Shown piece by piece: positions 6,816 to 64,000 of a DNA stretch of 64,000 bases. Made by a program: the position numbers and the translations under genes. Origin of the DNA: an uncultured Alphaproteobacteria bacterium (lineage in GTDB: Bacteria; Pseudomonadota; Alphaproteobacteria; GCA-2731375); the NCBI GenBank assembly GCA_951812805.1, contig CATOSZ010000001.1, positions 1,600,017 through 1,664,016 of the forward strand, written 5' to 3'. Within the stretch, counting starts at the first letter, position 1. Each line of letters begins with the position of its first letter. The notes beneath the pieces were generated by a model, which worked only from the letters and a program-made list of their open reading frames with translations, did no database searches and was not told where the DNA came from.

Positions 6816-8750
6816 ATGGTGGACGGCGGGCCGACACGGAGACTGACGACGATCCTCGCCGCCGATGTCGCCGGGTACAGCCGCCTGGTCGCCGCGGACG
6901 AGGAAGGCACACTCGCCCGGCTCGGGGACTATCGCCGCGGGCTGATCGACCCGAAGCTCGCCGGCTATCGTGGCCGCGTCGCTAACACGGCGGGCGACAG
7001 CCTGCTGATCGAATTCCCGAGCGTCGTCGACGCGTTGCGCTGCGCGCGCGAGATCCAGGCCGCCGTGGCCACCGCCAACGCCGACCTGCCGGAGGACGAG
7101 CGCCTGCACTTCCGCATTGGCCTCAACGTCGGCGACGTGGTCGAGGCGGGCGCGGACCTGCTCGGCGACGGGGTCAACGTCGCCGCCCGCCTGGAGGGCC
7201 TGGCGGAGCCGGGCGGCATCTGCCTTTCGCGCGCCGTTCGCGACCAGATCCGCGACCGCATGGACGTGTCGTTGGAGAACCTGGGCGAGGTCGAGGTGAA
7301 GAACATCGAGCGGCCCGTGCGGGCCTTCCGTGTCGCGGGGAAAGGCGCTGTGCCTCTGCCGCCTTCCGCGCCGACGGCGCGCCGCAAACTCCCGGTAGCA
7401 CTCGGTCTTCTCGTCCTTCTCGCCGTCGCGGCCGGCGGGGGCTGGTGGTGGCAGTCGGGGGCCGACGTCGCCCCCGGCGCCCCCGGCGAGGCGGTGCTTC
7501 CGCTGCCCGACAAGCCGTCGATCGCCGTGTTGCCGTTCGACAATCTCTCCGGCGACCCGGAACAGGCCTATTTCGCCGACGGCATGGCCGAAGACATCAT
7601 CACCGACCTCTCGAAACTCGACGGCCTGTTCGTCATCGCGCGCAATTCCTCGTTCCGTTATCGGGGTGGGGCGGTCGACCTGAAGGCGGTCGGGCGCGAG
7701 CTCGGCGTCAGATACGTGCTGGAGGGCTCGGTCCGCCGGGCCGGCGACGCCGTGCGGATCAACGCCCAGCTGATCGACGCGCAATCCGGCGGCCACCTTT
7801 GGGCGGATCGCTACGACGGCTCGCGGGCGAACGTCTTCGCGTTGCAGGACAAGGTGACGGCCGAGGTGGTCGCCGCGCTGGCCCTGAAACTCGATCCCGA
7901 GGCGAAGGCCCGCCTTGCCGCGCATGACGCCGGCAATCCGGAAGCCCACGACGCCTATCTCAAGGGCTGGCGGTTGATGCAGGTGGAGTCCCTGGAAAAC
8001 CTGCGTGCCGCCGAGCCCTATCTGAAGCAGGCGGTCGAGTTGGACCCGGGCCATGGCCGGGCGCATGCGGCGCTGGCATGGCTCTACTACGCCACGACCA
8101 TCATCGCGCGTGAATGGTACCCGGACTTCGGCTTCCTCTTCGCCTCCGACGCGGTCGCCCGCGCCCGCGGCCTGCTTGCCGTAGCGCTTCGCACCCCCTC
8201 CGCCTATGCGCACGGCGTCGAGGGTCGAATGCTTCGCTTTGCCTTGAAATCCGAGGACGCGCTTGCCGCGTTCGACCACGCGCTCCGCCTCAATCCCAAC
8301 GATGCCGGCACGCTCGCCTATCTCGCCGATACGCTGAACCGGCTGGGGCGGCCGGGCGAGGGGCTGGCGCATGCGGCGCGAGCACTCCGTCTCGATCCGA
8401 GGGGACCGGCCGTCTACCGGAAGGTGTTGGGGCAATTGCGCTTCGCCACCGAGGACTATGCGGGCGCGGTCGAGATCCTGGCGCCGGCGCTCCGGGACGA
8501 GCCGGACGACCTGTTCTCGCACTACTATCTGGTGGCCGCGCTCGGCTATCTCGGCCGAAAGGAAGACGCCGTGGCCGCCATCCGTCATTTCGACGAGCAG
8601 GTGGTGCCGGCCTATCTGCGGGCGGCGGACAACACGTTCAACATGGCCTGGGCACCCATGAGGGCGGGACACCTGGAACATGCCAAGTTGCTATCCAAGC
8701 GTCAGAAACAACAAATCCACGAGGGTCTGAGGCGCACCGGCGCGTTGTAG
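6816..8750 (+). CDS. Class III adenylate/guanylate cyclase with a TM segment, TolB-N-like domain and TPR repeats (paralog 1 of 5)
   Basis: N-terminal CYCc motifs (LAADVAGYSRL…NTAGDSLLIEF…GLNVGDVV…GDGVNVAARLE). One TM segment (LLVLLAVAAGGGWWW). TolB_N-like motif PSIAVLPFDNLSGDPEQAYFADGMAEDIITDLSK. C-terminal TPR region. Confidence 0.85.
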   Translation: MVDGGPTRRLTTILAADVAGYSRLVAADEEGTLARLGDYRRGLIDPKLAGYRGRVANTAGDSLLIEFPSVVDALRCAREIQAAVATANADLPEDERLHFRIGLNVGDVVEAGADLLGDGVNVAARLEGLAEPGGICLSRAVRDQIRDRMDVSLENLGEVEVKNIERPVRAFRVAGKGAVPLPPSAPTARRKLPVALGLLVLLAVAAGGGWWWQSGADVAPGAPGEAVLPLPDKPSIAVLPFDNLSGDPEQAYFADGMAEDIITDLSKLDGLFVIARNSSFRYRGGAVDLKAVGRELGVRYVLEGSVRRAGDAVRINAQLIDAQSGGHLWADRYDGSRANVFALQDKVTAEVVAALALKLDPEAKARLAAHDAGNPEAHDAYLKGWRLMQVESLENLRAAEPYLKQAVELDPGHGRAHAALAWLYYATTIIAREWYPDFGFLFASDAVARARGLLAVALRTPSAYAHGVEGRMLRFALKSEDALAAFDHALRLNPNDAGTLAYLADTLNRLGRPGEGLAHAARALRLDPRGPAVYRKVLGQLRFATEDYAGAVEILAPALRDEPDDLFSHYYLVAALGYLGRKEDAVAAIRHFDEQVVPAYLRAADNTFNMAWAPMRAGHLEHAKLLSKRQKQQIHEGLRRTGAL

Positions 8751-39190: not shown

Positions 39191-40921
39191 TCATGCCGGC
39201 AGTCCGAGGCGACCCAGGACGTCGTCGACATGGGCCAGCAGCCCGGGGTCGTCATGCATGAAGAACTGCGGCAGATGACTTCGTCGGAACATCGGGGCGA
39301 AGCGCTGGAGTTCGGTCATAGCGGCCCGCGCCTCGTCGTGCCGGCCCAGGCATTCGAGGGCGTGGGCCCGGTAGATCCAGGTCATCTGAAAGCCGAGCCC
39401 GTGTTTCAGCAACCGCTCCGTGGCGGCGAGGCATTCGACGTGGCGCTCGAGGCACAGCAAGACGCGTGCATGGCCGTAGTGATACCAGCTCGGCGTCAAC
39501 GGATTGAGGTCGATCGCCGCCTCGAAGTGCTGGACCGCCTCGTCGTAGCGCCCGGCGTGCATCAGCGTGAAGCCGTAGATGGCGCGCGTGTCGGCGTTGC
39601 CGGGATGCAGGGTAAGGCCCCGCCGGGCGATCTCGACGCCGTCCGCATGGCGGTTCAACGCCGCCGCGAGCATGGCGTTCAGGCTGATCGCCGCCGGCTC
39701 GCTCTCGTTGAGGACAAGCGCCTTGCGGGCGTAGGTGTCGGCCTCCTCGAAGTGGGCCATCGCCTCCGGTCCCAGCGACAATCGACCTTCGTACATGACC
39801 GTCCAGCCGACCAGCGCCCAGGCGGTCGCATAGTCCGGGTCGATATCGATGGCACGCCGGGCCAGTTCCCGCGCCTTCGAGGCGGCGGCGGCGTCGAACT
39901 TCAGCCACAGGTCCCAGGCGGTGACGCAGTTTCGCCAGGCCTCGACATTGTTGGTGCCGCGGGACAACATCAGGGCCCGTTCGCCGTCGGTCAGGCGAAG
40001 GCGCAGGTTGGTGACGATTTCCTTGACGATCTCGTCCTGGATCTCGAAGACGTCGTCCATTCGCCGGTCGTAGCGTTCGGCCCAGAGATGGGTGCCGTCG
40101 GCGGCGTCGATCAGCTGTGCCGTCACCCGGATACGGCTGCCGCCGCTCCGCACGCTGCCCTCCAGCACATAGCGCACGCCGAGTTCCGTCGCGACCCGGC
40201 CAAGATCCGTCGCGTCGCCCTTGTAGGCGAAGCTCGAATTTCGGGCGATGACCTTGAGCCGGGAAACCATCGAAAGCGCGGTGATGACATCCTCGGCGAT
40301 GCCGTCGCAGAAGAATTCCTGTTCCGGGTCGCTCGACCTGTTGGCGAAGGGCAGCACGGCGATCGAGGGGATCTCGTCACGCGGCGCGACGGCCGGCATG
40401 GATCGCGCGGTTGTCTCCGGTGCCCAGCGCCAGACCCGGACGGGGCGCCGGATATTCTTCACCTCGTGCTCGCCATCGTCGCTGAAGACGGCATCGAGCT
40501 TGCCCCGGACCTGGTCGTGAACGGTGCCCGAGACGGCGATCCCGCCCGGTTCGGCCAATGCTTCCAGGCGGGCGGCGATGTTGACGCCCTCGCCCAGGAT
40601 ATCCTCGCCGTCGACGACGACGTCGCCGAGATTGATGCCGATACGGAACCGCATGCCGTCTGTCGTCGTCGCCATGGCCTTCTGGACCCCGAGCGCGCAG
40701 CCGACCGCGGCGACGGCGCTGGCGAACTCGAGCAGCATGCCGTCGCCCGTGGTCTTGACGATGCGCCCGCCGTTCGCGGCAATCGCCGGGTCGACATGGT
40801 CGCGCCGATGCGCCTTGAGGGTGCGGATCGTGCCCGCTTCGTCCGCCTCCATCAGCCCGGAATAGCCGACCACGTCCGCCATCATGATCGCCGCCAGACG
40901 GCGTTCCTCGCCGGCGCTCAC
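39191..40921 (-). CDS. Class III cyclase-TolB_N-TPR protein (paralog 5; third gene of tandem triplet)
   Basis: The probable GTG start at 40921 overlaps the upstream stop (GTGA), giving VSAGEERRLAAIMMADVVGYSGL… This parallels the N-termini of the two upstream paralogs. Confidence 0.75.
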   Translation of the reverse strand: MSAGEERRLAAIMMADVVGYSGLMEADEAGTIRTLKAHRRDHVDPAIAANGGRIVKTTGDGMLLEFASAVAAVGCALGVQKAMATTTDGMRFRIGINLGDVVVDGEDILGEGVNIAARLEALAEPGGIAVSGTVHDQVRGKLDAVFSDDGEHEVKNIRRPVRVWRWAPETTARSMPAVAPRDEIPSIAVLPFANRSSDPEQEFFCDGIAEDVITALSMVSRLKVIARNSSFAYKGDATDLGRVATELGVRYVLEGSVRSGGSRIRVTAQLIDAADGTHLWAERYDRRMDDVFEIQDEIVKEIVTNLRLRLTDGERALMLSRGTNNVEAWRNCVTAWDLWLKFDAAAASKARELARRAIDIDPDYATAWALVGWTVMYEGRLSLGPEAMAHFEEADTYARKALVLNESEPAAISLNAMLAAALNRHADGVEIARRGLTLHPGNADTRAIYGFTLMHAGRYDEAVQHFEAAIDLNPLTPSWYHYGHARVLLCLERHVECLAATERLLKHGLGFQMTWIYRAHALECLGRHDEARAAMTELQRFAPMFRRSHLPQFFMHDDPGLLAHVDDVLGRLGLPA

Positions 40922-42654
40922 ACCGCCATCCCCGCGTCGGTCAGGACCCCGGCCAGCCGTTCCAGCATCTCCGGGTCGTTCAGCAGGAAGAATTGCGGCA
41001 GGTGGCCGACCCGCAGCATCGGTGCCAGCTGCGACGCGCGGGTCATCGCCTCGCGCGCCTCGGCGTCGCGGCCCTGGCATTGATAGATATAGGCACGGTA
41101 GAGCCAAGCCTGATGATGGTCCGGCTGGGCTTCCAACAGGCCGTCGATCGCTTGAAGGGATTCGTCCAGCCGGCCGAGGCAGAGCAGCGCGCGGGCATGG
41201 CCGTTGCGATACCAGACCGGCGGCAGCGGATTGAGCGCGAAGGCGGATGCGAAGTGCACCAGCGCCGCCTCGTAGCGTCCGCCATGCAGCAGGGCGAAGG
41301 CGAGAAAGCCGCGGGCATCCGCATTGCTCGGCAGGTGCGAGAGCGCTTCTTCGGCGATGGCCACGGCCTCGACGAAATTACCGTCCGAAAGCGCTACCAT
41401 CGTGGCGATGCCGGCGGTGACGCTGTTGCGTGCGTCGAGCGCGATCGCCCGTTCGGCGCAGTCGCGCGCGGTCGCAAAACTTTCCCGCGACGTCTCCGCC
41501 ACGGTCATCCGGCCCTCGAACCAGTGGGCGAAGGCCAGCGTCCCCCAGGCCGCCGCATAGTCGGGGTCGAGCGCGATGGCCCGCTCCGCGTGCTCGCGCG
41601 CCCGCAGGTGGCCGGAAGCGTTGTGCTTGATGTATTCGTCCATGGCACGCTGGCAGTGTTGCCAGGCCTCGATATTGTCGGTGCCGCGGGAGAGCATCAG
41701 GGCCTGCTCGCCGTCGGTCAGGCGGAGACGCAGGTTGGTGACGATTTCCTTGACGATCTCGTCCTGGATCTCGAAGACGTCGTCGAGGCGGCGATCATAA
41801 TGCTCGGCCCAGAGGTGGCCGCCGTCGGTGGCGTCGATCAGCTGCGCGGTGACCCGGATGCGGCTCCCGCCGGTCCGCACACTGCCTTCCAGGACGTAGC
41901 GCACGCCCAATTCCTCGGCGACGCGGCGGATGTCGGGCGAGGTGCCCTTGTAGGCGAAGCTGGAATTGCGCGCGATGACCTTGAGGCGGGCGATCTTCGA
42001 CAGCGCGGTGATCACGTCCTCGGCGATGCCGTCGCAGAAGAATTCCTGTTCGGGATCGGCCGACATGTTGGCGAACGGCAGCACGGCGATCGAGGGATCG
42101 TCGCCCGTTGCGCGGGCGCTCGGCTCGGCCCCGGGCGCCGTCGGGGCCTCCGCACTCCAGCGCCAGACCTGGACGGGGCGCTGGATGTTCTTCACCTGTT
42201 GCGCGCCGTCGTCCGTGAAGACCGCGTCCAGTTTGCCCTGGACCTGGTCGTGAACGGTCCCCGAGACGGCGATCCCGCCCGGATCGGCCAATGCTTCCAG
42301 GCGGGCGGCGACATTGACGCCTTCGCCCAGGATATCCTCGCCGTCGATGACGATGTCGCCGAGATTGACGCCGATGCGGAAGCGCATGTCGCCCGCCCTA
42401 TCGGCCATCGCCCGCTGGATCCACAGCGCGCAGTCGACGGCGGCCACGGCGCTGGCGAATTCGACCAGCATGCCGTCGCCCGTGGTCTTGACGATGCGTC
42501 CGCCGTGCGCGTGGATCGCCGGGTCGACGATATCGCGCCGGATGGCCTTCAGGCGCCGGATCGTCCCCGCCTCGTCCACCTCCATCAGTCCGGAATAGCC
42601 GACGACGTCCACCGCCAGGATCGCCGCCAGCCGACGTTCCACACCCCCGCTCAT
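40918..42654 (-). CDS. Class III cyclase-TolB_N-TPR protein (paralog 4; middle gene of tandem triplet)
   Basis: ATG at 42654 overlaps the upstream stop (ATGA): MSGGVERRLAAILAVDVVGYSGL… The rest of the 1087-aa ORF in the track is an upstream read-through. Confidence 0.8.
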   Translation of the reverse strand: MSGGVERRLAAILAVDVVGYSGLMEVDEAGTIRRLKAIRRDIVDPAIHAHGGRIVKTTGDGMLVEFASAVAAVDCALWIQRAMADRAGDMRFRIGVNLGDIVIDGEDILGEGVNVAARLEALADPGGIAVSGTVHDQVQGKLDAVFTDDGAQQVKNIQRPVQVWRWSAEAPTAPGAEPSARATGDDPSIAVLPFANMSADPEQEFFCDGIAEDVITALSKIARLKVIARNSSFAYKGTSPDIRRVAEELGVRYVLEGSVRTGGSRIRVTAQLIDATDGGHLWAEHYDRRLDDVFEIQDEIVKEIVTNLRLRLTDGEQALMLSRGTDNIEAWQHCQRAMDEYIKHNASGHLRAREHAERAIALDPDYAAAWGTLAFAHWFEGRMTVAETSRESFATARDCAERAIALDARNSVTAGIATMVALSDGNFVEAVAIAEEALSHLPSNADARGFLAFALLHGGRYEAALVHFASAFALNPLPPVWYRNGHARALLCLGRLDESLQAIDGLLEAQPDHHQAWLYRAYIYQCQGRDAEAREAMTRASQLAPMLRVGHLPQFFLLNDPEMLERLAGVLTDAGMAV

Positions 42655-44402
42655 GCCGGCAGCCCGGCCCGGCCCAGGGCGTCCGTGAAGTGGACCAGCA
42701 ATTCGGGGTCGTCGTGCAGGACGAGATTTGGCAAATGTCCCAGGCGGAATAGGGGGGCCAGGCGCACAACCTCCGCCACGCAGGCTCGCGCATCGTTCGA
42801 TCGGCCGAGGGATTCGAACGCGTAGGCGCGGTAGATCAACACCGTCTGATGACTGCCCTCGAGTTCCAGGGCCCGGTCGGTGGCGGCCAGCGCCGCCTCG
42901 TAGCGTTCGAGGCCGAGCAAGGCGCTCGCGTAGCCGCCGTGGTACCAGCTGGGCGTGATGGGGTTGAGGGAAATCGCCGCCTCGAAATGAAGCGCCGCGT
43001 CCTCGTAGCGCGCGGCCTGCGCCAGGGCCAAGGCGTAGTAGGCGCGCATATCGGCGTTGCCCGGATGATGGGCGAGGCCGCGCTCGGCAATGTCGACGCC
43101 GTCGCCATATCGCCCGAAAGCCACGGCCACCATGGCCTCGAGGCCGATGGCCATGGGCACCGTCGCATCCAGCGCAAGGGCCCGTTGCACATATCGGGCC
43201 GCCTGCTCGAACTTCTCCGTCGCCGCTGCGCCGAGCGATGTCCGTGCCTCGAACCAGAAGGACCATCCGGCCAGCGCATGGGCGACGGCATAGTCGGGAT
43301 CCAGCGCGATCGCTCCCTCGGCCAACGCCCGGGCACGGAGGTTTGTCGCAACCTCGAATTTCAGGAAAAGGTCCCAGGCCGTGGCGCAGTTCTGCCAAGC
43401 CTCGACGTTGCGGGTGCCACGGGCGATCAACAGCGCGCCGTCGCCATCCGAGAGGCGGACGCGCAGGTTGGCGACGATTTCCTTGACGATCTCGTCCTGG
43501 ATCGCGAAGACGTCGTCCATCCGCCGATCGTAGCGTTCGGCCCACAAGTGTGCGCCGTCCGTCGCGTCGATCAGCTGCGCCGTCACGCGGACACGACCGC
43601 CCCCGCTCCGCACGCTGCCCTCCAGCACGTGGCGCACGCCGAGGTCCTCGGCGACGCGGCGGATATCCGGCGATGTGCCCTTGTAGGCGAAGCTCGAATT
43701 GCGCGCGATGACCTTGAGGCGGGAGATCTTCGAGAGGGCGGTGATCACGTCCTCGGCGATGCCGTCGCAGAAGAACTCCTGTTCCGGATCGGCCGACATG
43801 TTGGCGAAGGGCAGCACGGCGATCGAGGGCGTCGCCGTTGTGGGCGCGTCCGCCACGGCGGGCTCCACCGCCAACATCTCCGGTTCCCAGCGCCAGATGT
43901 GGACCGGGCGGGCGATGTTCTTGACCTTGTGCATGCCACCGTCGGCCCAGGCGAGGTCGAGGCGGTCGCGGATCTGGCGGTGCGCGTCGTCCGAAATGGC
44001 GATGCCGCCGGGTGTGGCCAGGGCTTCGATACGGGCCGCGATGTTGACCCCATCGCCGAGCAGGTCCCCGCCCTCGGCGACGACGTCGCCGACATGAATG
44101 CCGACCCGGAACTCGATCCGCCGGTCCGCGTCGACGGCCCGGTTGCGTTCCGCCATGGCGTTCTGTGCGGCCGTGACGCACTTCACGGCGTCGACTGCGC
44201 TCGGGAATTCCAGCAGCAGGCTGTCGCCGGCGGTGTTGGCGATACGCCCGCCGTGGGTGTCGACGAGGCCGTCGATCAGCTCGCGCCGGTGCGCGCGCAA
44301 GGCGGCCAGCGTCGCCTCCTCGTCCGCGCCGACGAGACGCGAATAGCCGGCAACGTCCGCCGCCACGATCGCCGCAAGTCGTCTCACCGTGTTCTCCGCC
44401 AT
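42651..44402 (-). CDS. Class III cyclase-TolB_N-TPR protein (paralog 3; first gene of tandem triplet)
   Basis: 583 aa: MAENTVRRLAAIVAADVAGYSRL…, TolB_N motif PSIAVLPFANMSADPEQEFFCDGIAEDVITALSK, TPR tail. Confidence 0.85.
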   Translation of the reverse strand: MAENTVRRLAAIVAADVAGYSRLVGADEEATLAALRAHRRELIDGLVDTHGGRIANTAGDSLLLEFPSAVDAVKCVTAAQNAMAERNRAVDADRRIEFRVGIHVGDVVAEGGDLLGDGVNIAARIEALATPGGIAISDDAHRQIRDRLDLAWADGGMHKVKNIARPVHIWRWEPEMLAVEPAVADAPTTATPSIAVLPFANMSADPEQEFFCDGIAEDVITALSKISRLKVIARNSSFAYKGTSPDIRRVAEDLGVRHVLEGSVRSGGGRVRVTAQLIDATDGAHLWAERYDRRMDDVFAIQDEIVKEIVANLRVRLSDGDGALLIARGTRNVEAWQNCATAWDLFLKFEVATNLRARALAEGAIALDPDYAVAHALAGWSFWFEARTSLGAAATEKFEQAARYVQRALALDATVPMAIGLEAMVAVAFGRYGDGVDIAERGLAHHPGNADMRAYYALALAQAARYEDAALHFEAAISLNPITPSWYHGGYASALLGLERYEAALAATDRALELEGSHQTVLIYRAYAFESLGRSNDARACVAEVVRLAPLFRLGHLPNLVLHDDPELLVHFTDALGRAGLPA

Positions 44403-46723: not shown

Positions 46724-46895
46724 TGCGCGTTTCGGAAAGTCCCGGACACCGATTACGGAAAGTCCTGGCCAGAGATTTCAGTAAGTCGCGGCCAGTGATT
46801 CCGGAAAGTCCCGGACAGCATCACGGGGCGATCTGAGTTCAGCTTTCGGGTGCGCCGTCTCGGCGTCTACCTCTTGGCTTTTGCCGGGAGGGGAC

Positions 46896-48449
46896 ATGCC
46901 CAGACGGAAGCAGACGAGACGAACGACGGTGAGAGATGCACGAACGATCCTGCGGCTGACGCATGACCAAGGCCTCTCGGCGCGAGAGGTGGCGGAACGG
47001 CTGAAGGTCTCCAAGACGACAGTGTCGACCTATTTGCTGCGGGCCCGCGAGGTCGGCCTTACCGCCTGGCCGCTGCCGGCGGAATACGAGGACGACGCGG
47101 TCCTGCAAGAGACGCTGTTCCGCCGCATGGGCCGGCCCCCGCGCGACAGGTGCGAGCCGCACTGGCCGACGGTCGCGGCCGAGCTGAAGCGCAAGGGGGT
47201 GACGCTGACCCTGCTCTGGCAGGAATACCGCGCCTCACATCCCGATGGCTACGGCTACACCTGGTTCTGCGAAGCCTTCACGGCGTTCAAGCGGCGCACC
47301 GGCGCCACCTGGCGCAACCGCCACGAGGCCGGTGCGGTCATGCAGACCGATTATGCCGGCCAGACGGTGGACATCGTCGACCCCGAGACCGGCGAGGTGC
47401 ACGACGCGCAGATCTTCGTCGCCGTGCTGGGCGCTTCCTCGCTCACCTTCGCCACCGCCAGCCTGACCCAGCGCCTGCCCGACTGGGTCGCCGGACAATG
47501 CCGGGCGCTCGCCTACTTCGGCGGCGTGCCCAAGAGCATCGTCTGCGATAACCTCAAGGCCGGCGTCGCCAAGCCGCTCTGGTTCGAGCCGACCCTCAAC
47601 CCGACCTTCGCCGCGCTCGCCGAGCACTACGACACCACCGTCCTGCCGACCCGGGTCCGCAAGCCGCGCGACAAGGCCAAGGTCGAAGTCGCCGTCCAGG
47701 TCGTCGAGCGCTGGATCCTGGCAAGACTGCGCAATACGCGCTTCTTCTCCCTCGACCAGCTCAACCGGGCGATCCGCGACCTCCTCGAGGAGCTCAACGA
47801 GCGGCCCATGCGCAACCTTGGAAAGAGCCGGCGCCAGATGTTCGAGGCCATCGAGCGCGAGGCCCTGGCACCCCTGCCGACGACGCCCTTCGAATATGCC
47901 GAATGGAAGACCGCCAAGGTCCATTCCGACTATCACGTCGACGTCGAGCGCAGCTTCTACTCCGTGCCGCACGGCCTGATCGGCCGCAAGGTCCAAGTCC
48001 GGCTCACTCACCGCACGGTCGAGATCTTCCACAACCACAAGCGCGTCGCCAGCCATCTCCGCCGCTCACCGCATGGCGGCCATGCCACGATCCCGGCCCA
48101 CATGCCCAAGGCGCACCAGCGCTATGCCGAGCGAACGCCACAAAGCCTGATCGACCAGGCCAGCCGCATCGGCCCCAACGCCGCCCTCCTGGTCGAGCGG
48201 ATGATCCGCGATCGGCCCCATCCCGAGCAAGGCTATCGCAGCGCCATGGGCGTCTTGTCGCTCGCCCGCCGATACGAACCGGAACGCGTCGAGGCCGCCT
48301 GCGCACGCGCGCTCACCATCAACACGACCAGCTACTCATCGCTCGCCGCCATCCTCAAGTCCGGCCTCGATCGCACACGCCCCGAGCGCGAACCGCTTCT
48401 GCCGCTGCCGCCACACACCAACATCCGCGGCCCCGGCTACTACCGATAA
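46896..48449 (+). CDS. istA: IS21-family transposase IstA
   Basis: HTH N-terminus plus DDE integrase core (…[33 protein letters not shown]…). ATG 46896 after GGGAGGGG. Confidence 0.9.
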
Positions 48450-48466
48450 CCAGGAGAAGACACCTC

Positions 48467-49243
48467 ATGCTGACACACCCGACCCTCGACCAGATGCAGG
48501 CCCTCGGCTTCAAGGGCATGGCAGAGGCTTACCGCGACATGGCCGAGCGAGGCCAATCATCGGAATTGAACCGCGAGGACTGGCTCGCCCTCATGCTCGA
48601 CCGCGAGGCCGCCACCCGCGCCGACAAGCGCCTCGCCAACCGCCTCAGACAGGCCAGGCTACGCTTCCCCGAGGCCTGCATCGAGGACATCGACTTCGCC
48701 GCCGAACGAGGCCTCGACCGCCGCGCCGTCCTCTCTCTCGCCCAGGGCGTCTGGCTCAAGGCACACGAGAACCTCATCGTCACCGGCCAGACCGGAACCG
48801 GCAAGACATGGCTCGCCTGTGCCATCGCCCATCAGGCCGCCAGGCTCGATCATTCCGTCCTCTACGTCCGCATGCCCAGGCTCTTCGAGGACCTCGCCAT
48901 GGCCCGCCTCGACGGCCGGCTGCCCCGCCTGATCGACCGCCTCGCCCGGGTCCAGCTGCTCGTCCTCGACGACTGGGGAACCCATGGCCTGACCGACCGC
49001 CAGCGCCTCGATCTCCTGGAAATCTGCGAGGAACGATACCACCGACGCTCAACCCTCATCACCGCGCAGATCCCCGTGACCGCCTGGCACGACCTGATCG
49101 GCGAGGCCACCATCGCCGACGCCATCCTCGACCGCGTCATCCACAACGCCCACCGCATCGGCTTGAAAGGCGACAGCATGCGAAAGAAGAAATCGACGAC
49201 CGACTTGACCCAGCCAACCACAACGGAAAACAATCCCGACTGA
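48467..49243 (+). CDS. istB: IS21-family helper ATPase IstB
   Basis: Walker [14 protein letters not shown]. Walker B LLVLDDWG. Confidence 0.9.
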
Positions 49244-49529
49244 CGGCAACAAGGCACCCGAAGCCAAACTCCCGGAACCGGCCGGGACTTTATGAAATCG
49301 GTGGCCAGGACTTACTGAAACCGCCGTCCGGAACTACCGAAATCCGCAGCCCGCCACGGAGGAAGAACTTTTCCCGTTCCTTGAAGGTCCTGGTGTCCCC
49401 GAAGGGGAGCGGTGTCCTGGGCCCGCGCACGCATCGAATCCAGTGTCGCCGCCTCGACGATCGCAGCCAGACGTCCTGCATCCAGAGCGGCGTCGAAAAT
49501 CCCCGCCAAAACTCTGGTGTCCCCAGATT

Positions 49530-51461
49530 TCAGACAGGATTATACCCGGGTATAATCGGGTAGGAGGGGTCCTCTCGGCGCCCCTCCTCCCACACCACCG
49601 GGCATACGTTCTACGTACCACGGCGGTTTCCGGTCAGTTGTAACGCGAGATACCTATCGGTCATAGGGACAAGCCCCTGGCCTTCGAACCAAGCCAGGGT
49701 CATGGCTTCGGTGGCTTGATAGCTGAGGGACTTGCGCCACCAGCCCTTGCCGGAGAGAGCCAAGATCCAGGCCCGCCGCTCGGGCACCCCGAGGCTTCGC
49801 AGGAAGTCCGCTTGCGCCTTGGTGCGCTTGCATTGCTTGAGCCGGACACAGCGCAGTTTTCGACGGATCCAGCCGTCGAGACGCCGAAGCTGGCTCGCGC
49901 AACGGGCATGGCGGAAGTACGTCACCCAGCCGGCGAGGAAGCCGTTGAGTTCGCCGACCATGCGCGCGAGGCTGATGCCCCGGTTGCGCCGGGTGATCTC
50001 GCGAACCCGTTGCTTCGCCCGCCGCAGGCTTTGCGGCGCGATGCCGAGCGATCCATCCGACAACAGCCGGTGGCCGAGGAACTTGCGGTCCCCGGCCGGA
50101 GCGACGGCACTTTTCTCCTGGTTGACCCGCAGATGCAACCTGCCTTGGAGGAATTCGGCGACCGAGGCCATCACCCGCTCGCCCGCCGCTCGAGTGCGAA
50201 CGTAGATGTTCACGTCGTCGGCATAACGGCAGAAGCTATGGCCCCGCGCCTCCAGCATCCGGTCCAGATCGTCCAGTAGAAGATTGGCCAGCAGCGGCGA
50301 CAGCGGGCCGCCTTGCGGCGTGCCCTCATGGCGCCGGATGCAGACGCCGGTCTGCATCATCCCCGCTTGCAGAAAGCGACGGATGGTGCGCAGCAGGCGC
50401 TTGTCGCCAATCCGCCCAGCCAGTCGGGACATCAGAATGTCGTGATTGACCCGGTCGAAGAACGCCTCCAGATCCAGGTCGACCACAATCCCGCGGCCTT
50501 CGGCAACGTACTTACCCGCTTGGGCCAGAGCATCGTGAGCGCTCCGGCCCGGACGGAAGCCGAAACTCGAAGCCGAGAAACCCGGATCGAGGATCGGCTG
50601 AAGGACGTGCAGGATGGCTTGCTGAACCAGACGATCCAGCACCGTCGGGATGCCCAATTGCCGCATCCCGCCTCCCGGCTTGGGGATCGAGACCCCCTTC
50701 ACCGGTTGGGGCCGATAGTCGCCTCGCGACAACGCCGCCACCAGCGCGTCCTTGTGATCGACGAGCCAGAGCCGCAGGTCTTGGATGGTCATCCCATCCA
50801 CGCCCGCCGACCCCTTGTTCGCCTTCACCCGCTTGTAGGCTTGGTTCAGGTTGGCGGAACTCACCACCCGTTCCATCAGGTCTTGCGTCAAGGCTCGTTG
50901 CCGGTCCAACGCCGTGCGCACTTGTGGCACCTCGCAGGCTCCAGTTCCGGTTCCGCCGTCACCAGGGGCCTCGGGGCGCAGCGCCTTCATCAGGGCCTCG
51001 TCGAAAAGGTCCAATTGATAGCCACCGCCTTGCTGCCGCTCCATGCTCATCGAGTTGGTCCAGACTGCTCCTTGCTATTCGGATTCGGCCCTTCGGCGCC
51101 TCGCGGCCCCTACTATGGCCTCGGCTGACTTCTCCACCGCCGTCGCTCCCCGTCGCCGGGTCGCTACTCGGTTCCCCCGAGAGCGCTGGAGATCTCCCTG
51201 GGTAAAACCTTGATCTTTCCGCCGGTCGCGGCCGGATTTACCAATGCGATGTCCGAACGACTATCGGGCATCGCCATCCATTGCTGGCTTACCCCATCGC
51301 ACCGGCCTGATATCCGGTTTCTGTTCGTCCGCTCCGGATTTTGCCTCCGGCTTCCTCCCCACCCCACCTCGCGGCGACGCAGTTGCCTTCAGCTAACGGT
51401 TCCGGTCGTTACGGCCCGTAGAGAACTTCCATCTCCTAGATCAACGCCATGCCAGGCACAC
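49530..51461 (-). mobile_element. Group II intron (class C-like, about 1.9 kb) inserted immediately 3' of a terminator hairpin; 3' boundary approximate
   Basis: The minus-strand 5' end GUGUG at 51461-51457 directly follows the hairpin plus U-run. A 479-aa RT/maturase ORF sits in domain IV. GNRA-capped D5-like hairpin at 49558-49596. 20-bp palindrome at 49538-49557. Confidence 0.6.
49611..51050 (-). CDS. Group II intron-encoded reverse transcriptase/maturase
   Basis: RT domains 0-7 (…AYKRVKANKGSAGVDGMTI…FGFRPGRSAHDAL…YADDVNIYV…) and X/maturase region. 479 aa. Confidence 0.9.
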   Translation of the reverse strand: MSMERQQGGGYQLDLFDEALMKALRPEAPGDGGTGTGACEVPQVRTALDRQRALTQDLMERVVSSANLNQAYKRVKANKGSAGVDGMTIQDLRLWLVDHKDALVAALSRGDYRPQPVKGVSIPKPGGGMRQLGIPTVLDRLVQQAILHVLQPILDPGFSASSFGFRPGRSAHDALAQAGKYVAEGRGIVVDLDLEAFFDRVNHDILMSRLAGRIGDKRLLRTIRRFLQAGMMQTGVCIRRHEGTPQGGPLSPLLANLLLDDLDRMLEARGHSFCRYADDVNIYVRTRAAGERVMASVAEFLQGRLHLRVNQEKSAVAPAGDRKFLGHRLLSDGSLGIAPQSLRRAKQRVREITRRNRGISLARMVGELNGFLAGWVTYFRHARCASQLRRLDGWIRRKLRCVRLKQCKRTKAQADFLRSLGVPERRAWILALSGKGWWRKSLSYQATEAMTLAWFEGQGLVPMTDRYLALQLTGNRRGT

Positions 51462-51488
51462 AAGAAAAGGGGCCGCCGAAGCGGCCCC
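51462..51488 (-). terminator. Rho-independent terminator (GGGGCCGC-UUCG-GCGGCCCC + UUUUCUU) serving as the intron target
   Basis: Perfect 8-bp GC stem with a UUCG loop and a U-run on the minus strand. The intron 5' end abuts it. Confidence 0.55.
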
Positions 51489-51680
51489 TAACGATGTCCT
51501 CGATAACCTCACCATTTCCCGGAACATTGGGCGGATGCTCCCGATGTCCATGATGCCGTCAGCAAGTTCATCCTCCTTCAACCACGAAGTTGGTGGAAGA
51601 TGCGCCCTCGGCGATTCCCTGTCAAGGGCAAATGTGAGGCCGTCGGAGATATCGCCCGGTCCCGCCCCGGTCGATCAACC

Positions 51681-53081
51681 ATGCAACAGCACAACACCTC
51701 CCACACCAGCTCCACCCCCCGTCCCTGGCTCGCCAACGAGAGCCTCAACCCGAGCGGCGGCCGGGAACGCTCCCCGGTCCACAAGCAGGCCGAGAGGGGC
51801 GCGGAGAGCTTTCTCGGCCTGCCCGAGGGCATCAAGCGCTTCGAGATCCTCGCCGTCCTGCGCCGGGTCGGCCTCGAGGACGGCTGGACACGCGGCCTGA
51901 TCAGCCACTACGAGCTGCTGCTCACCTACACCAGGGAGAGCGACTGGGCGCCGGGCGGACGACCCGTCGTCTGGCTCTCGGTGGAGAAGGCGGCCCAACA
52001 GCTCGGTATCTCCCCCCGCCAGGTCCGGCGCAACGAGCGGCGGATGATGGAACTGGGCGCCCTGGCCTTCCGTGATTCTCCCAACCACCGCCGCTTCGGG
52101 CGCCGCGACGGCGAGGGCCGGATCGTCGAGGCCTATGGCCTGGACCTCTCGCCCGCCGCCGCCCTGCTGCCCCGCCTGGCACGGCTGGAACAGACCCTGG
52201 TCCGGAACAGGGCCGAATGGCGCCGGCTCAAGCGGGAGATCGGCACGGCCCGCAAGGGCATCCGCGCCGCCATCGAATGGGCCCTCGAACACCAGCGCGT
52301 GAGCGACGAGATCGCCGAGACGCTCTGGCAGGGATTACAGGGCTTCGCAGAGCGGATCCGCGCCGAAACACCCCTCGATGGCTTGCGTCAACGACTGGCC
52401 GAACTCCGCGCCTTCGACGCCCGTCTGTGGCGTCTGATCGGGGAAGATCGGCCCGTGGACCCGCCCGGGGACAATTCCCCCAACGACGACAATGACTTGC
52501 CGGCCAATATGTCCGCCACGGGGGACCGATATGTCCGCCCTGGCGGACATCCGTGTCCGCCACCATTAGATGACAATACAAACCTAGTTCCTGATCAAGG
52601 AATACCGGTAAGCGGCGGCGAAGCGGCCGCCGGGCCGGCAAGGGACGAAGGGGGCGCGGCGGTGGCGGCTCACCGGCACCCGCCGGGGCGCGGCGGAGAG
52701 GAAGGGGGCCGGCACGGGGATGTGCCCCGGCCCCGGGTGTCGTGGGACAACCTGCTGGCGATCCTGCCGCCGGGCCTGCGCCATCGGCTGCCGCTCGATG
52801 AACATCCCTCCTGGTCCTCGTTGATCGACGCGGCGGGCGAGCACGCCGCCGAACTCGGCATCTCGCCCCATGCCTGGGGGGAGGCCTGCCGGGCAATGGG
52901 CCGGGAGGGGGCGGCGATGGCGGTGATCGTCGTCGCCGCCAAGCACCACCGGGGCGAGGTGCGCCGCCCCGGCGGCTACTTGCGCGCACTGACGGCGCGG
53001 GCCGGGACGGGGGAGCTGCATCTCGCCCGCTCCGTGTACGGCCTGCTCAACACAACCACGGGAAAGGAACAGAACCGATGA
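51681..53081 (+). CDS. repC: Replication initiator protein, RepC-like (HTH)
   Basis: …WLSVEKAAQQLGISPRQVRRNERRMMELGALAFRDSPNHRRFGRRDGEGRIVEAYGLDLSPAAALLPRL… matches the RepC family core. Followed by parA-parB with ATGA overlap. Confidence 0.7.
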   Translation: MQQHNTSHTSSTPRPWLANESLNPSGGRERSPVHKQAERGAESFLGLPEGIKRFEILAVLRRVGLEDGWTRGLISHYELLLTYTRESDWAPGGRPVVWLSVEKAAQQLGISPRQVRRNERRMMELGALAFRDSPNHRRFGRRDGEGRIVEAYGLDLSPAAALLPRLARLEQTLVRNRAEWRRLKREIGTARKGIRAAIEWALEHQRVSDEIAETLWQGLQGFAERIRAETPLDGLRQRLAELRAFDARLWRLIGEDRPVDPPGDNSPNDDNDLPANMSATGDRYVRPGGHPCPPPLDDNTNLVPDQGIPVSGGEAAAGPARDEGGAAVAAHRHPPGRGGEEGGRHGDVPRPRVSWDNLLAILPPGLRHRLPLDEHPSWSSLIDAAGEHAAELGISPHAWGEACRAMGREGAAMAVIVVAAKHHRGEVRRPGGYLRALTARAGTGELHLARSVYGLLNTTTGKEQNR

Positions 53082-56700: not shown

Positions 56701-57951
56701 CCCCAGTGGGGAGTGCCAGCCGCGGCCATGGCTGCGGCGCTGCTTGTCGCCGGATGCGGCAGCAGCACCACAGGCACTACGTCCGATGCGGCGACGCCAT
56801 CGAAGCCGGTTGCGCCGACCGAGCAGGAAAAGGCTGACGCCGCGAAACCGGTTGCGCCGAACGAGCAGGAAAAGGCTGACGCCGCGAAACCGGTTGCGCC
56901 GAACGAGCAGGAAAAGGCTGACGCCGCGAAACCGGTTGCGCCGAACGAGCAGGAAAAGGCTGACGCCGCGAAACCGGTTGCGCCGAACGAGCAGGAAAAA
57001 GCTGACGCCACGGCAGTATTGAGTAGCGACAGTTTTGTTAGTATTAGTAGCCCTCCTGCCAATCAACTGATCGCTGCGGCCACGGCAGCTGATGATGTCA
57101 CGAAGAAGGTAGCTGAGGAAATTGCGAGTGCAGCAGCCGCTACTCCTTCACTCGGCAGTGTTCACCAATCAACGGCTGCTCCCGATGCGCGTAGGAAGAA
57201 GATTGGCGTGTTGTCGTCCCGGCACTACAAGAACAATGTAGTGTTTTATGCCAAAGACGGTAATGGAAACTTTTTCCACGATTCAATAACTGACGGCACC
57301 GTCGTGAACGCTCCTATCGATGGATGGAATGGTGTTGAGTGGAAAAATAAGGATGATACCGGCACACTTCGTGTCAGGGGTTATGGAACAGAGCGCGGCG
57401 TCATGCCTCTTTTTGCCCTCGGTTATTGGCTCCATGTTCCAGACGATGCCACGAGTGCCGATTCCTATGAGGTTGGGGTCTTCGCCCTCGGCGGCGGCGG
57501 TGGTTTCAATACGGGACATCTCTCGGGCCTCACCGGCACTGCCACATACGAAGGCGATGCGGTCGGTCTGTATGCCAAGAGAGCCGCAGTCGAAGACACC
57601 CCTGACATCAAGGAGTTCACTGCCGATGTCGCTCTGACGGCGGATTTCGGCGCTAACACCGAACTCGGTAGCGTGAGCGGGACGGTATCCAACTTCAATG
57701 TCGGCGGCATGGAGAAAGCGCTGAAGTTGAGCCTCGGAAGCGCAACTATCACTGGCACCCGATACGGAGGCTTCTTCAAGGGAGGAGACACCAGCGCCGC
57801 TGGCGGGTTCTCGGGCAAGTGGGCAGGCGCGTTCTACGGCGACGGACAAGCCACCACCGACAAGCCAGCCAGCATCGTCGGGACCTTCGGCGCTGCGAAG
57901 AGTGATAAGTTGGAGAGCTTCATTGGGGCCTTCGGCCCCAAGAAGCAGTAG
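56683..57951 (+). CDS. Surface lipoprotein (SLP) with TbpB/fHbp-like C-terminal 8-strand barrel (copy 1)
   Basis: Lipobox LLVAGC. 5× in-frame 13-aa repeats (KPVAPNEQEKADAA). C-terminal domain …ATYEGDAVGLY…FTADVALTADF…LGSATITGTRYGGFFKGG…GAFYGD…IVGTFGAAKSDKLESFIGAFGPKKQ, characteristic of Slam-dependent lipoproteins. RBS AGGAG. Confidence 0.75.
   Translation: MLISRKPQWGVPAAAMAAALLVAGCGSSTTGTTSDAATPSKPVAPTEQEKADAAKPVAPNEQEKADAAKPVAPNEQEKADAAKPVAPNEQEKADAAKPVAPNEQEKADATAVLSSDSFVSISSPPANQLIAAATAADDVTKKVAEEIASAAAATPSLGSVHQSTAAPDARRKKIGVLSSRHYKNNVVFYAKDGNGNFFHDSITDGTVVNAPIDGWNGVEWKNKDDTGTLRVRGYGTERGVMPLFALGYWLHVPDDATSADSYEVGVFALGGGGGFNTGHLSGLTGTATYEGDAVGLYAKRAAVEDTPDIKEFTADVALTADFGANTELGSVSGTVSNFNVGGMEKALKLSLGSATITGTRYGGFFKGGDTSAAGGFSGKWAGAFYGDGQATTDKPASIVGTFGAAKSDKLESFIGAFGPKKQ
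56806..57000 (+). repeat. 5× tandem 39-bp in-frame repeat within SLP1
   Basis: aaaccggttgcgccgaacgagcaggaaaaggctgacgccgcg repeated head-to-tail. Confidence 0.85.
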
Positions 57952-57975: not shown

Positions 57976-58029
57976 GGGCGGGGTCCGGAGAGAAACGCTC
58001 CGAGCCCCGCCCGGCTTTTTTCCGTTTTT
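57976..58029 (+). terminator. Rho-independent terminator after SLP1 (identical arrangement after SLP2 at 63437-63490)
   Basis: gggcggggtccggag agaaacg ctccgagccccgccc followed by ggcTTTTTTccgTTTTT. Confidence 0.6.
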
Positions 58030-58041
58030 AGTTTTCCATGT

Positions 58042-58102
58042 GGGCTTCTCCGAGGCGAGCGAGGCCGCTCCGGCGGAGGCCCCGCTCGCCTCGGAGAAGC
58101 CC
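58042..58102 (+). promoter_or_regulatory. 20-bp perfect inverted repeat overlapping the putative SD of Slam (also at 63503-63565)
   Basis: gggcttctccgaggcgagcg [21 nt] cgctcgcctcggagaagccc ends 5 nt before the ATG. The GGAGAAG SD candidate lies in the 3' arm. Confidence 0.5.
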
Positions 58103-58107
58103 ATCTC

Positions 58108-58760
58108 ATGCATCCGTTATCGATATTCCGTGCGCTGGCGTTGGGAACGGCGCTGGCATGTGCCGTACCAGCCTGGGCAAGACCGGATTCGACGCCACCC
58201 CGCGCCGATGCGGCCGAGGCCCAGGAACTTGTCCGCGATGGCCGGTTCGAGGACGCGCTGGAGCGTCTCCGCCCCCTGGCCGAAGGGGGCACGGTGGATG
58301 CGGCGGCGATGTTCCAGTTGGGCCTCGCGGCGGTGGGCGCGGCGCAAGAAGCGGATTTGGCGGAGGCGAAGCGCGAGGCGCTGCTGGCCGAGGCGATCGC
58401 GGCCTTCCGGTCGCTTCTGGTGCGTCGGCCGGGCCTGGTGCGGGTACGCCTGGAGCTGGCCCGTGCCTTCTTCTTGAAGGGCGAGGACGATCTTGCGAAG
58501 GCGCATTTCGAGCGCGTGCTGGCGGGCAAGCCACCGGCGGCGGTGATTCACAACGTCAACCGCCTTCTGGCGGAGATCCGCGCACGTAAGCGCTGGAGCC
58601 TCAATCTCGGCTTCGCGCTCGCGCCGGACAGCAACGTTTCGGCGGCGTCGGACAATCGGACGATCTGGATCGACACGGCCTACGGTCGTCTGCCGTTTAC
58701 CTACGAGACGGCGCCGAAGTCGGGTATCGGCGTCTCGGTGTGGGCCGGGGGTGAGTACCA
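58108..58760 (+). pseudogene. Slam-like (DUF560) surface-lipoprotein translocator, copy 1: N-terminal TPR + start of barrel, truncated by an IS1182-family fragment
   Basis: Signal peptide MHPLSIFRALALGTALACAVPAWA. TPR-like region. …KRWSLNLGFALAPDSNVSAASDNRTIWIDTAYGRLPFTYETAPKSGIGVSVWAGGEYQY, then IS-derived sequence from about 58757. Confidence 0.6.
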
Positions 58761-63421: not shown

Positions 63422-63576
63422 GTCCTGGCGGGCTTGACTTTAAACGGGCGGGGTCCGGAGAGAAGCACTCCGAGCCCCGCCCGGCTTTTTTCCGTTTTGT
63501 TTTTCCATGTGGGCTTCTCCGAGGCGAGCGGGGCCGCTCCGGTGGAGGCCCCGCTCGCCTCGGAGAAGCCCATCTC

Positions 63577-64000
63577 ATGTATCCGTTATCGATATTCCGT
63601 GCGTTGGCGTTGGGAACGGCGCTGGCATGTGCCGTACCAGCCTGGGCAGCGCCGGATCCGGCACGGCCCAGCGCCGATGTGGCCGAGGCCCAGGAACTTG
63701 TCCGCGATGGCCGGTTCGAGGACGCCCTGAAGCGTCTCCGCCCCCTGGCCGAAGGGGGCACGGTGGATGCGGCGGCGATGTTCCAGTTGGGCCTCGCGGC
63801 GGTGGGCGCGGCGCAAGAAGCGGATTTGGCGGAGGCGAAGCGCGAGGCGCTGCTGGCCGAGGCGATCGCGGCCTTCCGGTCGCTTCTGGTGCGTCGGCCG
63901 GGCCTGGTGCGGGTACGCCTGGAGCTGGCCCGTGCCTTCTTCTTGAAGGGCGAGGACGATCTTGCGAAGGCGCATTTCGAGCGCGTGCTGGCAGGCAAGC
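63577..64000 (+). CDS. Slam-like (DUF560) translocator copy 2, 3' end cut by the window edge
   Basis: MYPLSIFRALALGTALACAVPAWA… is more than 90% identical to copy 1 over the available 141 codons and is not interrupted within the window. Confidence 0.7.
   Translation, partial: MYPLSIFRALALGTALACAVPAWAAPDPARPSADVAEAQELVRDGRFEDALKRLRPLAEGGTVDAAAMFQLGLAAVGAAQEADLAEAKREALLAEAIAAFRSLLVRRPGLVRVRLELARAFFLKGEDDLAKAHFERVLAGK

Follow-up and report, generated by a model that had tools for sequence, protein, structure and literature searches.

Bacterial group II introns of class C (IIC) are known to insert just downstream of the stem-loop of an intrinsic transcription terminator (PMC4424553, PMC3898094), and their target has been described as "short IBS1 and IBS3 sequences" accompanied by a hairpin in the DNA (PMC3898094), where the intron-binding sites (IBS) of the exons pair with the exon-binding sites (EBS) of the intron. 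The proteins encoded by class C introns are devoid of an endonuclease domain (PMC4424553). At the RNA level, IIC introns are diagnosed by CGC in place of AGC at the base of domain V (D5) and by a D5 distal stem which is 2 bp shorter; further marks are a bulge with a conserved AGGAA (epsilon-prime region), an EBS3 of the IIB type and the absence of EBS2 (PMC1702495). The prototype is B.h.I1 of Bacillus halodurans (PMC1702495), which is also covered by Robart et al. 2007 (a reference of PMC4424553), and a crystal structure (3IGI, cited in PMC3898094) represents the IIC intron of Oceanobacillus iheyensis. In our study, a stretch of 64,000 nucleotides from an uncultured Alphaproteobacteria bacterium (assembly GCA_951812805.1, contig CATOSZ010000001.1, positions 1,600,017 to 1,664,016), hereafter called the window, was analysed, and it very probably carries a complete and probably still mobile group IIC intron retroelement. 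This intron is previously unannotated and is of an ordinary, textbook kind, namely a IIC intron after a terminator beside a plasmid replication gene.

The intron occupies positions 49555 to 51461 of the minus strand (1907 nt, GUGUG...CCCGAU), as delimited by Rfam matches and a family alignment, and its ribozyme part without the open reading frame (ORF) amounts to 467 nt. The anatomy, class, boundaries and exon-pairing elements of the intron have been established in the present analysis. The ends were set from the family alignment and from the covariation of EBS1 and EBS3, and an identical 1907-nt copy found in related metagenome contigs (sister contigs, described below) is in agreement with them. 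At 51461 the minus strand reads GUGUGCCUGGCAUGG, directly after the terminator tail. An earlier interpretation made without database searches (the sequence-only reading) had called a class C group II intron behind a rho-independent terminator, with the GUGUG 5' end at 51461 right after the hairpin and UUUUCUU; reading of the minus strand confirmed this position and all the testable features agree with the call. The span of 49530-51488 that was given with it does contain the intron, but the true element is confined to 49555-51461 and the rest is hairpin and part of the flank.

The intron is not a chance resemblance, since two Rfam group II families exceed their curated thresholds with window-wide E-values of 3.6e-27 and 6.1e-07. 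The core of domain I (51207-51378, minus strand) matches the full-length model of RF02001 (group-II-D1D4-3) with 132.8 bits against a gathering threshold of 32, and it includes the AGGAA motif, the EBS1 loop and the EBS3 region. AGGAA at 51356-51352 aligns with the conserved GAAGGAAG of RF02001, as a sequence motif only and not as the geometry of the 11-nt bulge. Domains II-III with the J2/3 region (51088-51167, minus strand) match RF01998 (group-II-D1D4-1) with 54.1 bits against a gathering threshold of 35. Under relaxed thresholds RF00029 (D5 and domain VI, D6) matches 49628-49555 end to end, finishing exactly at CCCGAU. The termini GUGUG and GAU fit the group II 5' GUGYG and 3' AY.

As the score of RF00029 lies below the curated cut-off, D5 and D6 were given a separate covariation test in 38 distinct relatives. 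Standard pairs fill 94.4% of the cells as compared to 36-47% when the partners are slid, 10/20 pairs are changed on both sides against 6.3 in shuffles, and the covariation score is 0.314 against 0.137 for shuffled data, with 0/500 shuffles reaching 0.314. D5 lies at 49594-49627 (minus strand) in the RF00029 alignment, and its helix 1 is 97.4% paired with 5 compensatory pairs. Its triad is CGC (49625-49623) and its distal stem counts 3 bp, the group II consensus having 3 model positions there that are gapped in the alignment. D6, with a GAGA loop, lies at 49558-49591 (minus strand) according to the RF00029 alignment, the minimum free energy fold and helix 2 with its 5 compensatory pairs; the bulged branch-point A is 49561, seven nt from the intron's 3' end, and is followed by the terminal GAU (49557-49555). 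The CGC triad, the short D5 distal stem and AGGAA correspond to the IIC diagnostics of PMC1702495. Folding of the 3' end, proposed as a check with the sequence-only reading, yielded both helices, which also covary in the relatives. The GNRA-capped hairpin that was taken there as D5-like is present at 49591-49558 with its GAGA cap, but it is D6, because the RF00029 alignment and covariation put D5 just upstream at 49627-49594.

The intron-encoded protein of 479 aa is placed in domain IV (51050 to 49611, minus strand), and this reverse transcriptase (RT)/maturase, which had been predicted earlier, carries RVT_1 (1.2e-38) and GIIM (2.2e-17; maturase, X) as its only domains, with YADD intact at residue 276. 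No endonuclease domain was found by the domain search, and the alignment with the GsI-IIC RT reaches residue 471/479. The score of the protein with the group II RT/maturase equivalog TIGR04416, 394.6 bits, exceeds the cut-off of 300, and no retron or Drt model is passed; the highest of these, retron St85, reaches 72.3 bits against a cut-off of 235. Among solved structures, it aligns with the GsI-IIC RT (6ar1, IIC) at 1.1e-132 over residues 58-471, with 7uim at 4.6e-84, with 5hhj and 5hhl at about 1e-70, with TeI4h (6me0, IIB) at 1.3e-38 and with LtrA (5g2x, IIA) at 1.6e-32. We take 7uim, 5hhj and 5hhl to be IIC enzymes, their PDB names saying merely group II or retron-type RT. With this reading the four best solved relatives are IIC, the solved IIC RTs being ahead of the IIB or IIA ones by about 100 orders of magnitude, and the protein would group with the class C RTs. 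The comparison with intron classes that had been suggested earlier leads to IIC enzymes as the nearest ones and away from retrons and diversity-generating retroelements (DGRs). Intron-protein relatives of 70-89% identity number in the hundreds in metagenomes.

A further observation concerns the stop codon UAG (49613-49611) at which the protein ends and which lies inside the apical loop of D5, a trait common to the closest relatives (L002-L004 and L009). The ORF therefore extends over the 5' strand of D5, the catalytic domain.

The 5' exon ends in an intrinsic-terminator hairpin, A-GGGGCCGC UUCG GCGGCCCC-U (51468-51489, minus strand), for which the terminator scan gave 9 pairs, 8 of them G-C, a loop of 4 and a T-rich tail. 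The U-rich tail UUUCUU (51462-51467, minus strand) contributes its last two U (51463-51462) as IBS1, and G1 of the intron falls 6-7 nt past the hairpin. The same arrangement is seen in the relatives, which were collected by a scan that took one genome for each species and gave 80 related loci. For 44 distinct non-tandem 5' flanks, the mean folding energy of the 40 nt preceding the intron is -18.95 kcal/mol, as compared to -8.66 kcal/mol for 880 random positions of the same loci (Mann-Whitney p = 4e-22); nearly all the relatives sit behind hairpins, at a distance of 0-11 nt.

The exon-pairing elements were located by covariation. In the family alignment the loop after the conserved GC in domain I covaries with the terminal bases of the 5' exon, and the in-register consecutive EBS1 pairs total 86 against 24.6 +/- 7.3 when permuted, with 0/2000 permutations as high. 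In the window intron this loop is GCAAUGGA (51277-51284, minus strand; intron 178-185), and EBS1 begins at A180 (51282). EBS3 is the fourth base of GUAAAU and covaries with the first base of the 3' exon; the two form a standard pair (A-U, G-C, U-A, C-G or G-U) in 25/30 distinct relatives, whereas the permutation mean is 18.1 and 2/2000 permutations are as high. In the window it is A224 in GGUAAAUCC (51238, minus strand), whose partner is U 49554, where the 3' exon begins. Two other placements of EBS1, in the single-stranded GAUAGUCGUUCGGAC or in GAAAGAUCAAGG, were rejected on account of the family covariation, which places it in the GCAAUGGA loop. For a large uncultured IIC clade, the family alignment offers clean natural covariation of both EBS1 and EBS3. 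Membership in the IIC-attC sublineage, which inserts into the attC sites of integron cassettes, was not found: the 5' flank has a perfect G+C stem, a UUCG loop and a U tract and scores as a terminator, and the neighbours are repC, parA and IS21 rather than an integron, which also speaks against such membership.

We infer the splicing, mobility and priming of the intron from these features along the following lines. The intron RNA would fold as a six-domain ribozyme, and the RT/maturase produced from domain IV would bind the intron RNA and aid splicing, as is expected from the family. The excised RNA-protein particle would then reverse-splice into single-stranded DNA just past a terminator-type hairpin, the site probably being chosen by the hairpin together with the 2-bp EBS1-IBS1 pairing (AA with UU) and the one EBS3-IBS3 pair (A224 with U). 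The inserted RNA would subsequently be copied into DNA; since the intron protein is without an endonuclease domain, the primer should come from the replication fork, again by analogy with the family.

Certain points weigh against the assignment to a complete and mobile IIC intron. The class C placement of the protein is a similarity ranking against solved structures and not a phylogeny, and the RF00029 score of D5/D6 is 31.9 bits (E = 8e-4), under the curated cut-off of 40. The EBS1-IBS1 pairing has just 2 bp, which is weak for a family that ranges from 0 to 6, although a short pairing agrees with the account of IIC targets in PMC3898094. No intron-less site was found by an exact scan of metagenome contigs with the 27-nt hairpin and tail, which is a common terminator sequence because its 3 metagenome matches all had unrelated flanks, and no promoter was detected upstream of the terminator by a sigma-70 scan. 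As several bacterial classes are without an endonuclease domain (PMC4424553) and the class C call is a ranking rather than a tree, the intron could belong to a different class of this sort, either IIB-like (D, E or F) or IIA-like (A), and lie behind the hairpin by coincidence. This is very improbable, as the three top-ranking solved relatives all belong to IIC, with a lead of about 94 orders of magnitude over IIB, and the CGC of D5, its short distal stem and AGGAA of domain I are specific to IIC as per PMC1702495. Coincidence is also opposed by the hairpins preceding nearly all the relatives and by an EBS1 pairing of just 2-5 bp, which is unlike that of introns with homing sites. That the RT stems from a non-intron system (retron, DGR or defence RT) and that the likeness of the flanking RNA is incidental has a negligible probability; weak sub-threshold matches to retron and Drt models exist (72 bits for the best, retron St85, against 235), but TIGR04416 is passed (394.6 against 300), the GIIM maturase domain is present, and the gene is embedded between D1-D3 and D5-D6 of a ribozyme with canonical GUGUG and AU ends.

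A further possibility is a relic whose structure is intact but which no longer moves: the adjacent IS21 would have stranded it, and its exon pairing would not suffice for splicing. In favour of this are the 2 bp of EBS1-IBS1, a B.h.I1 copy with a poor 5' exon which yielded no ligated exons (PMC1702495), and a 3' flank which is unlike that of the sister contigs, with IS21 only 206 bp away. On the other hand, the ORF, YADD, D5, D6 and both termini are intact, and the hairpin, the UU of IBS1 and the U of IBS3 are in place. Moreover, the relative L002, whose EBS1 loop is identical to that of the window intron, sits after UUUUUU and thus also uses a UU site. The sister copies, one 100% identical and the other differing by one single-nucleotide polymorphism (SNP), argue for very recent mobility as judged from the sequence. 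A stranded relic is hence regarded as unlikely, and a complete IIC intron, probably still mobile, as the preferred explanation.

The intron lies between an IS21 copy on one side and repC on the other, as the sequence-only reading had noticed. The IS21-family element (46724-49348, plus strand; Pfam rve, Mu-transpos_C_2 and IstB_IS21) has terminal repeats TGCGCGTTTCGG... and TGCGGATTTCGG..., encodes IstA (46881-48449) and IstB (48446-49243), and ends 206 bp away from the intron's 3' end; no target-site duplication was found for it. TGTCTGAAATCTGGGG (49536 downwards) was considered as an IS21 end abutting the intron and was rejected, the true inverted repeats being at 46724 and 49348. The gene repC (51600-53081, plus strand; RP-C 1.2e-32, RP-C_C 7.4e-25) is divergent from the terminator and intron and is followed by parA. 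No protein-coding gene is interrupted, because the intron landed behind the hairpin ending a short transcription unit which is directed away from repC. In the plasmid collection, the intron has only 72-74% matches, over the RT region, and the repC-parAB region has no match.

A perfect 20-bp palindrome, GATTATACCCGGGTATAATC (49538-49557), is present as claimed earlier near the 3' end, but it is not a feature of the intron. As the intron stops at 49555, the palindrome straddles the 3' splice site, with 3/20 bases from the intron (GAU, 49557-49555) and 17/20 from the 3' exon (TATACCCGGGTATA plus ATC). It is absent at the sister locus, and it is a property of the 3' flank of the window, because the near-identical downstream copy of L081 (copy B) precedes TGTCGCG... 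and a DinB gene. The IIC call for the window is hence useful chiefly for annotation: the boundaries are exact, no gene is disrupted, and the palindrome and IS21 are unrelated neighbours.

Some side observations were made around these flanks. The 206 bp between the intron and IS21 (49349-49554) hold the start of an ORF (LAGIFDAALDAGRLAAIVEAA...) which is cut by IS21; this flank was absent from all the fetched relative loci, and the truncated 54-aa ORF had no match in the plasmid collection. On the plus strand, a promoter-like TTCAGA-16-TATAAT (10/12; 49529-49556) runs across the palindrome and the 3' junction, antisense into the intron, probably by chance. On the repC side, 146 nt including the terminator (51455-51600, minus strand) fold as a long imperfect hairpin plus terminator at -59.8 kcal/mol (z = -2.7). 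Replicons of the repABC type have counter-transcribed RNAs (ctRNAs), and by its position this region could be an antisense, ctRNA-like regulator of repC; no Rfam ctRNA family matched it and no sigma-70 promoter was found for such an RNA. Farther away in the window, five tandem 42-bp units (56759-57010), 95-100% identical except the first, are probably a repeat within a coding region. Three direct repeats of ~1.73 kb (39772-44250) are 66-85% identical and have a partial inverted relative at 6970-7650, ~33-37 kb away, and 58006-58305 is repeated at 63475-63774 with 91% identity.

The window holds the single-copy state only of the intron. Four contigs of one ENA metagenome assembly (L081, L082, L086 and L087), the sister contigs, carry the same repC and terminator followed by two introns in a row (L081:1683-5497), and have DinB in place of the palindrome and IS21. 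It is the first (upstream) copy which is identical to the window intron and the second which has the SNP. Their junctions read CUUG|GUGUG...GAU|UGUGCC...GAU|UGUCGCG; relative to the window, CUU is followed by one additional G, and G1 is missing from the second copy. Both junctions can be explained by a single event, the entry of the second intron between G1 and U2 of the one already resident; of the origins considered, only insertion at G1|U2 yields the two junctions in a single step. The others were homologous deletion or duplication and a microhomology crossover at TGT or TTGT, and each of these predicts a junction or 5' flank unlike the observed one. Insertion at G1|U2 fits with EBS3 being A, which pairs with U2 and not with G1. 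Its weak point is EBS1, which in the sister contigs forms 0 bp with CUUG when in register.

A comparable arrangement has been observed in another alphaproteobacterial metagenome-assembled genome (MAG), where an ORF-less mini-intron of 664 nt lies at G1|U2 of a full-length IIC intron behind three different terminators (L007:1926-4492, L008:1926-4492 and L024:1260-4492), with the junction GAU|UGUGCC. EBS1 is CAUG in the mini-intron and AACG in the full-length intron; AACG matches UGUU| in 2/3 sites, and the mini-intron EBS1 begins with C, matching G1 of the resident intron. In L024, an extra copy of the mini-intron occurs with a TG spacer (period 666). This suggests ORF-less parasites homing into the 5' end of a helper intron. 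In a separate IIC lineage (L027:1821, L055:2023 and L023:1928), EBS1 is GUCGG, complementary to intron 3' ends (CCGAU or CGAC), and its members stand directly behind D6-like hairpins of other introns, which suggests targeting of the 3' ends of other introns.

Across the tandem loci a rule is hinted at for an occupied terminator, whereby EBS3 U or C leads to a perfect tandem and EBS3 A to insertion at a depth of one nt in the resident. Perfect tandems conform to it in L032 (C) and in L027 and L056 (U), and shifted ones in L081 and L007/8/24 (A); a perfect tandem in spite of EBS3 A makes L051 and L068 exceptions. Tentatively, and with somewhat less than an even chance, the terminator by repC may be a reusable landing pad at which EBS3 (A) dictates nested re-insertion. 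If true, the product would be a twintron only one nucleotide deep, in which splicing of the inner copy has to come first so that the outer 5' splice site is restored. The nested or tandem arrangement lies outside the window and is considered as a lead rather than a result.

When the window intron is set beside the known systems, it presumably shares with the O. iheyensis intron the 5' end GUGUGCC(C/U)GGCAUGG, the position of the EBS1 loop after GC, GUAAAU around EBS3, and AACCGCCG...CGGUGGUGUG in D5. The crystallised form of the O. iheyensis intron is ORF-less, unlike the window intron. In case of the protein, the best solved relative is GsI-IIC of Geobacillus stearothermophilus (6ar1), with the same layout of RT, thumb and C-terminal region, a likeness of the proteins alone, whereas the window protein is longer at its N-terminus by about 55 residues. 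With B.h.I1 (PMC1702495) the window intron shares insertion downstream of an intrinsic terminator stem-loop, a short IBS1 and single IBS3, the CGC triad, a shortened D5, AGGAA and an endonuclease-less protein. Unlike B.h.I1, it belongs to another host lineage and resides on a high-G+C replicon with repC and parA, its closest relatives come from alphaproteobacterial MAGs, its EBS1-IBS1 pairing has 2 bp and its stop codon falls within the D5 loop. For the tandem copies, the counterpart is the IIB1 intron EcKTE56.groEL, in which a U as EBS3 forms a wobble pair with G1, so that the head-to-tail tandems are perfect (PMC12584367). There a second copy enters an occupied site and the pairing of EBS3 with the 5' end of the resident governs the outcome, as would also be the case in the sister contigs; in these, however, EBS3 is A and the second copy lies one nucleotide further in, before U2.

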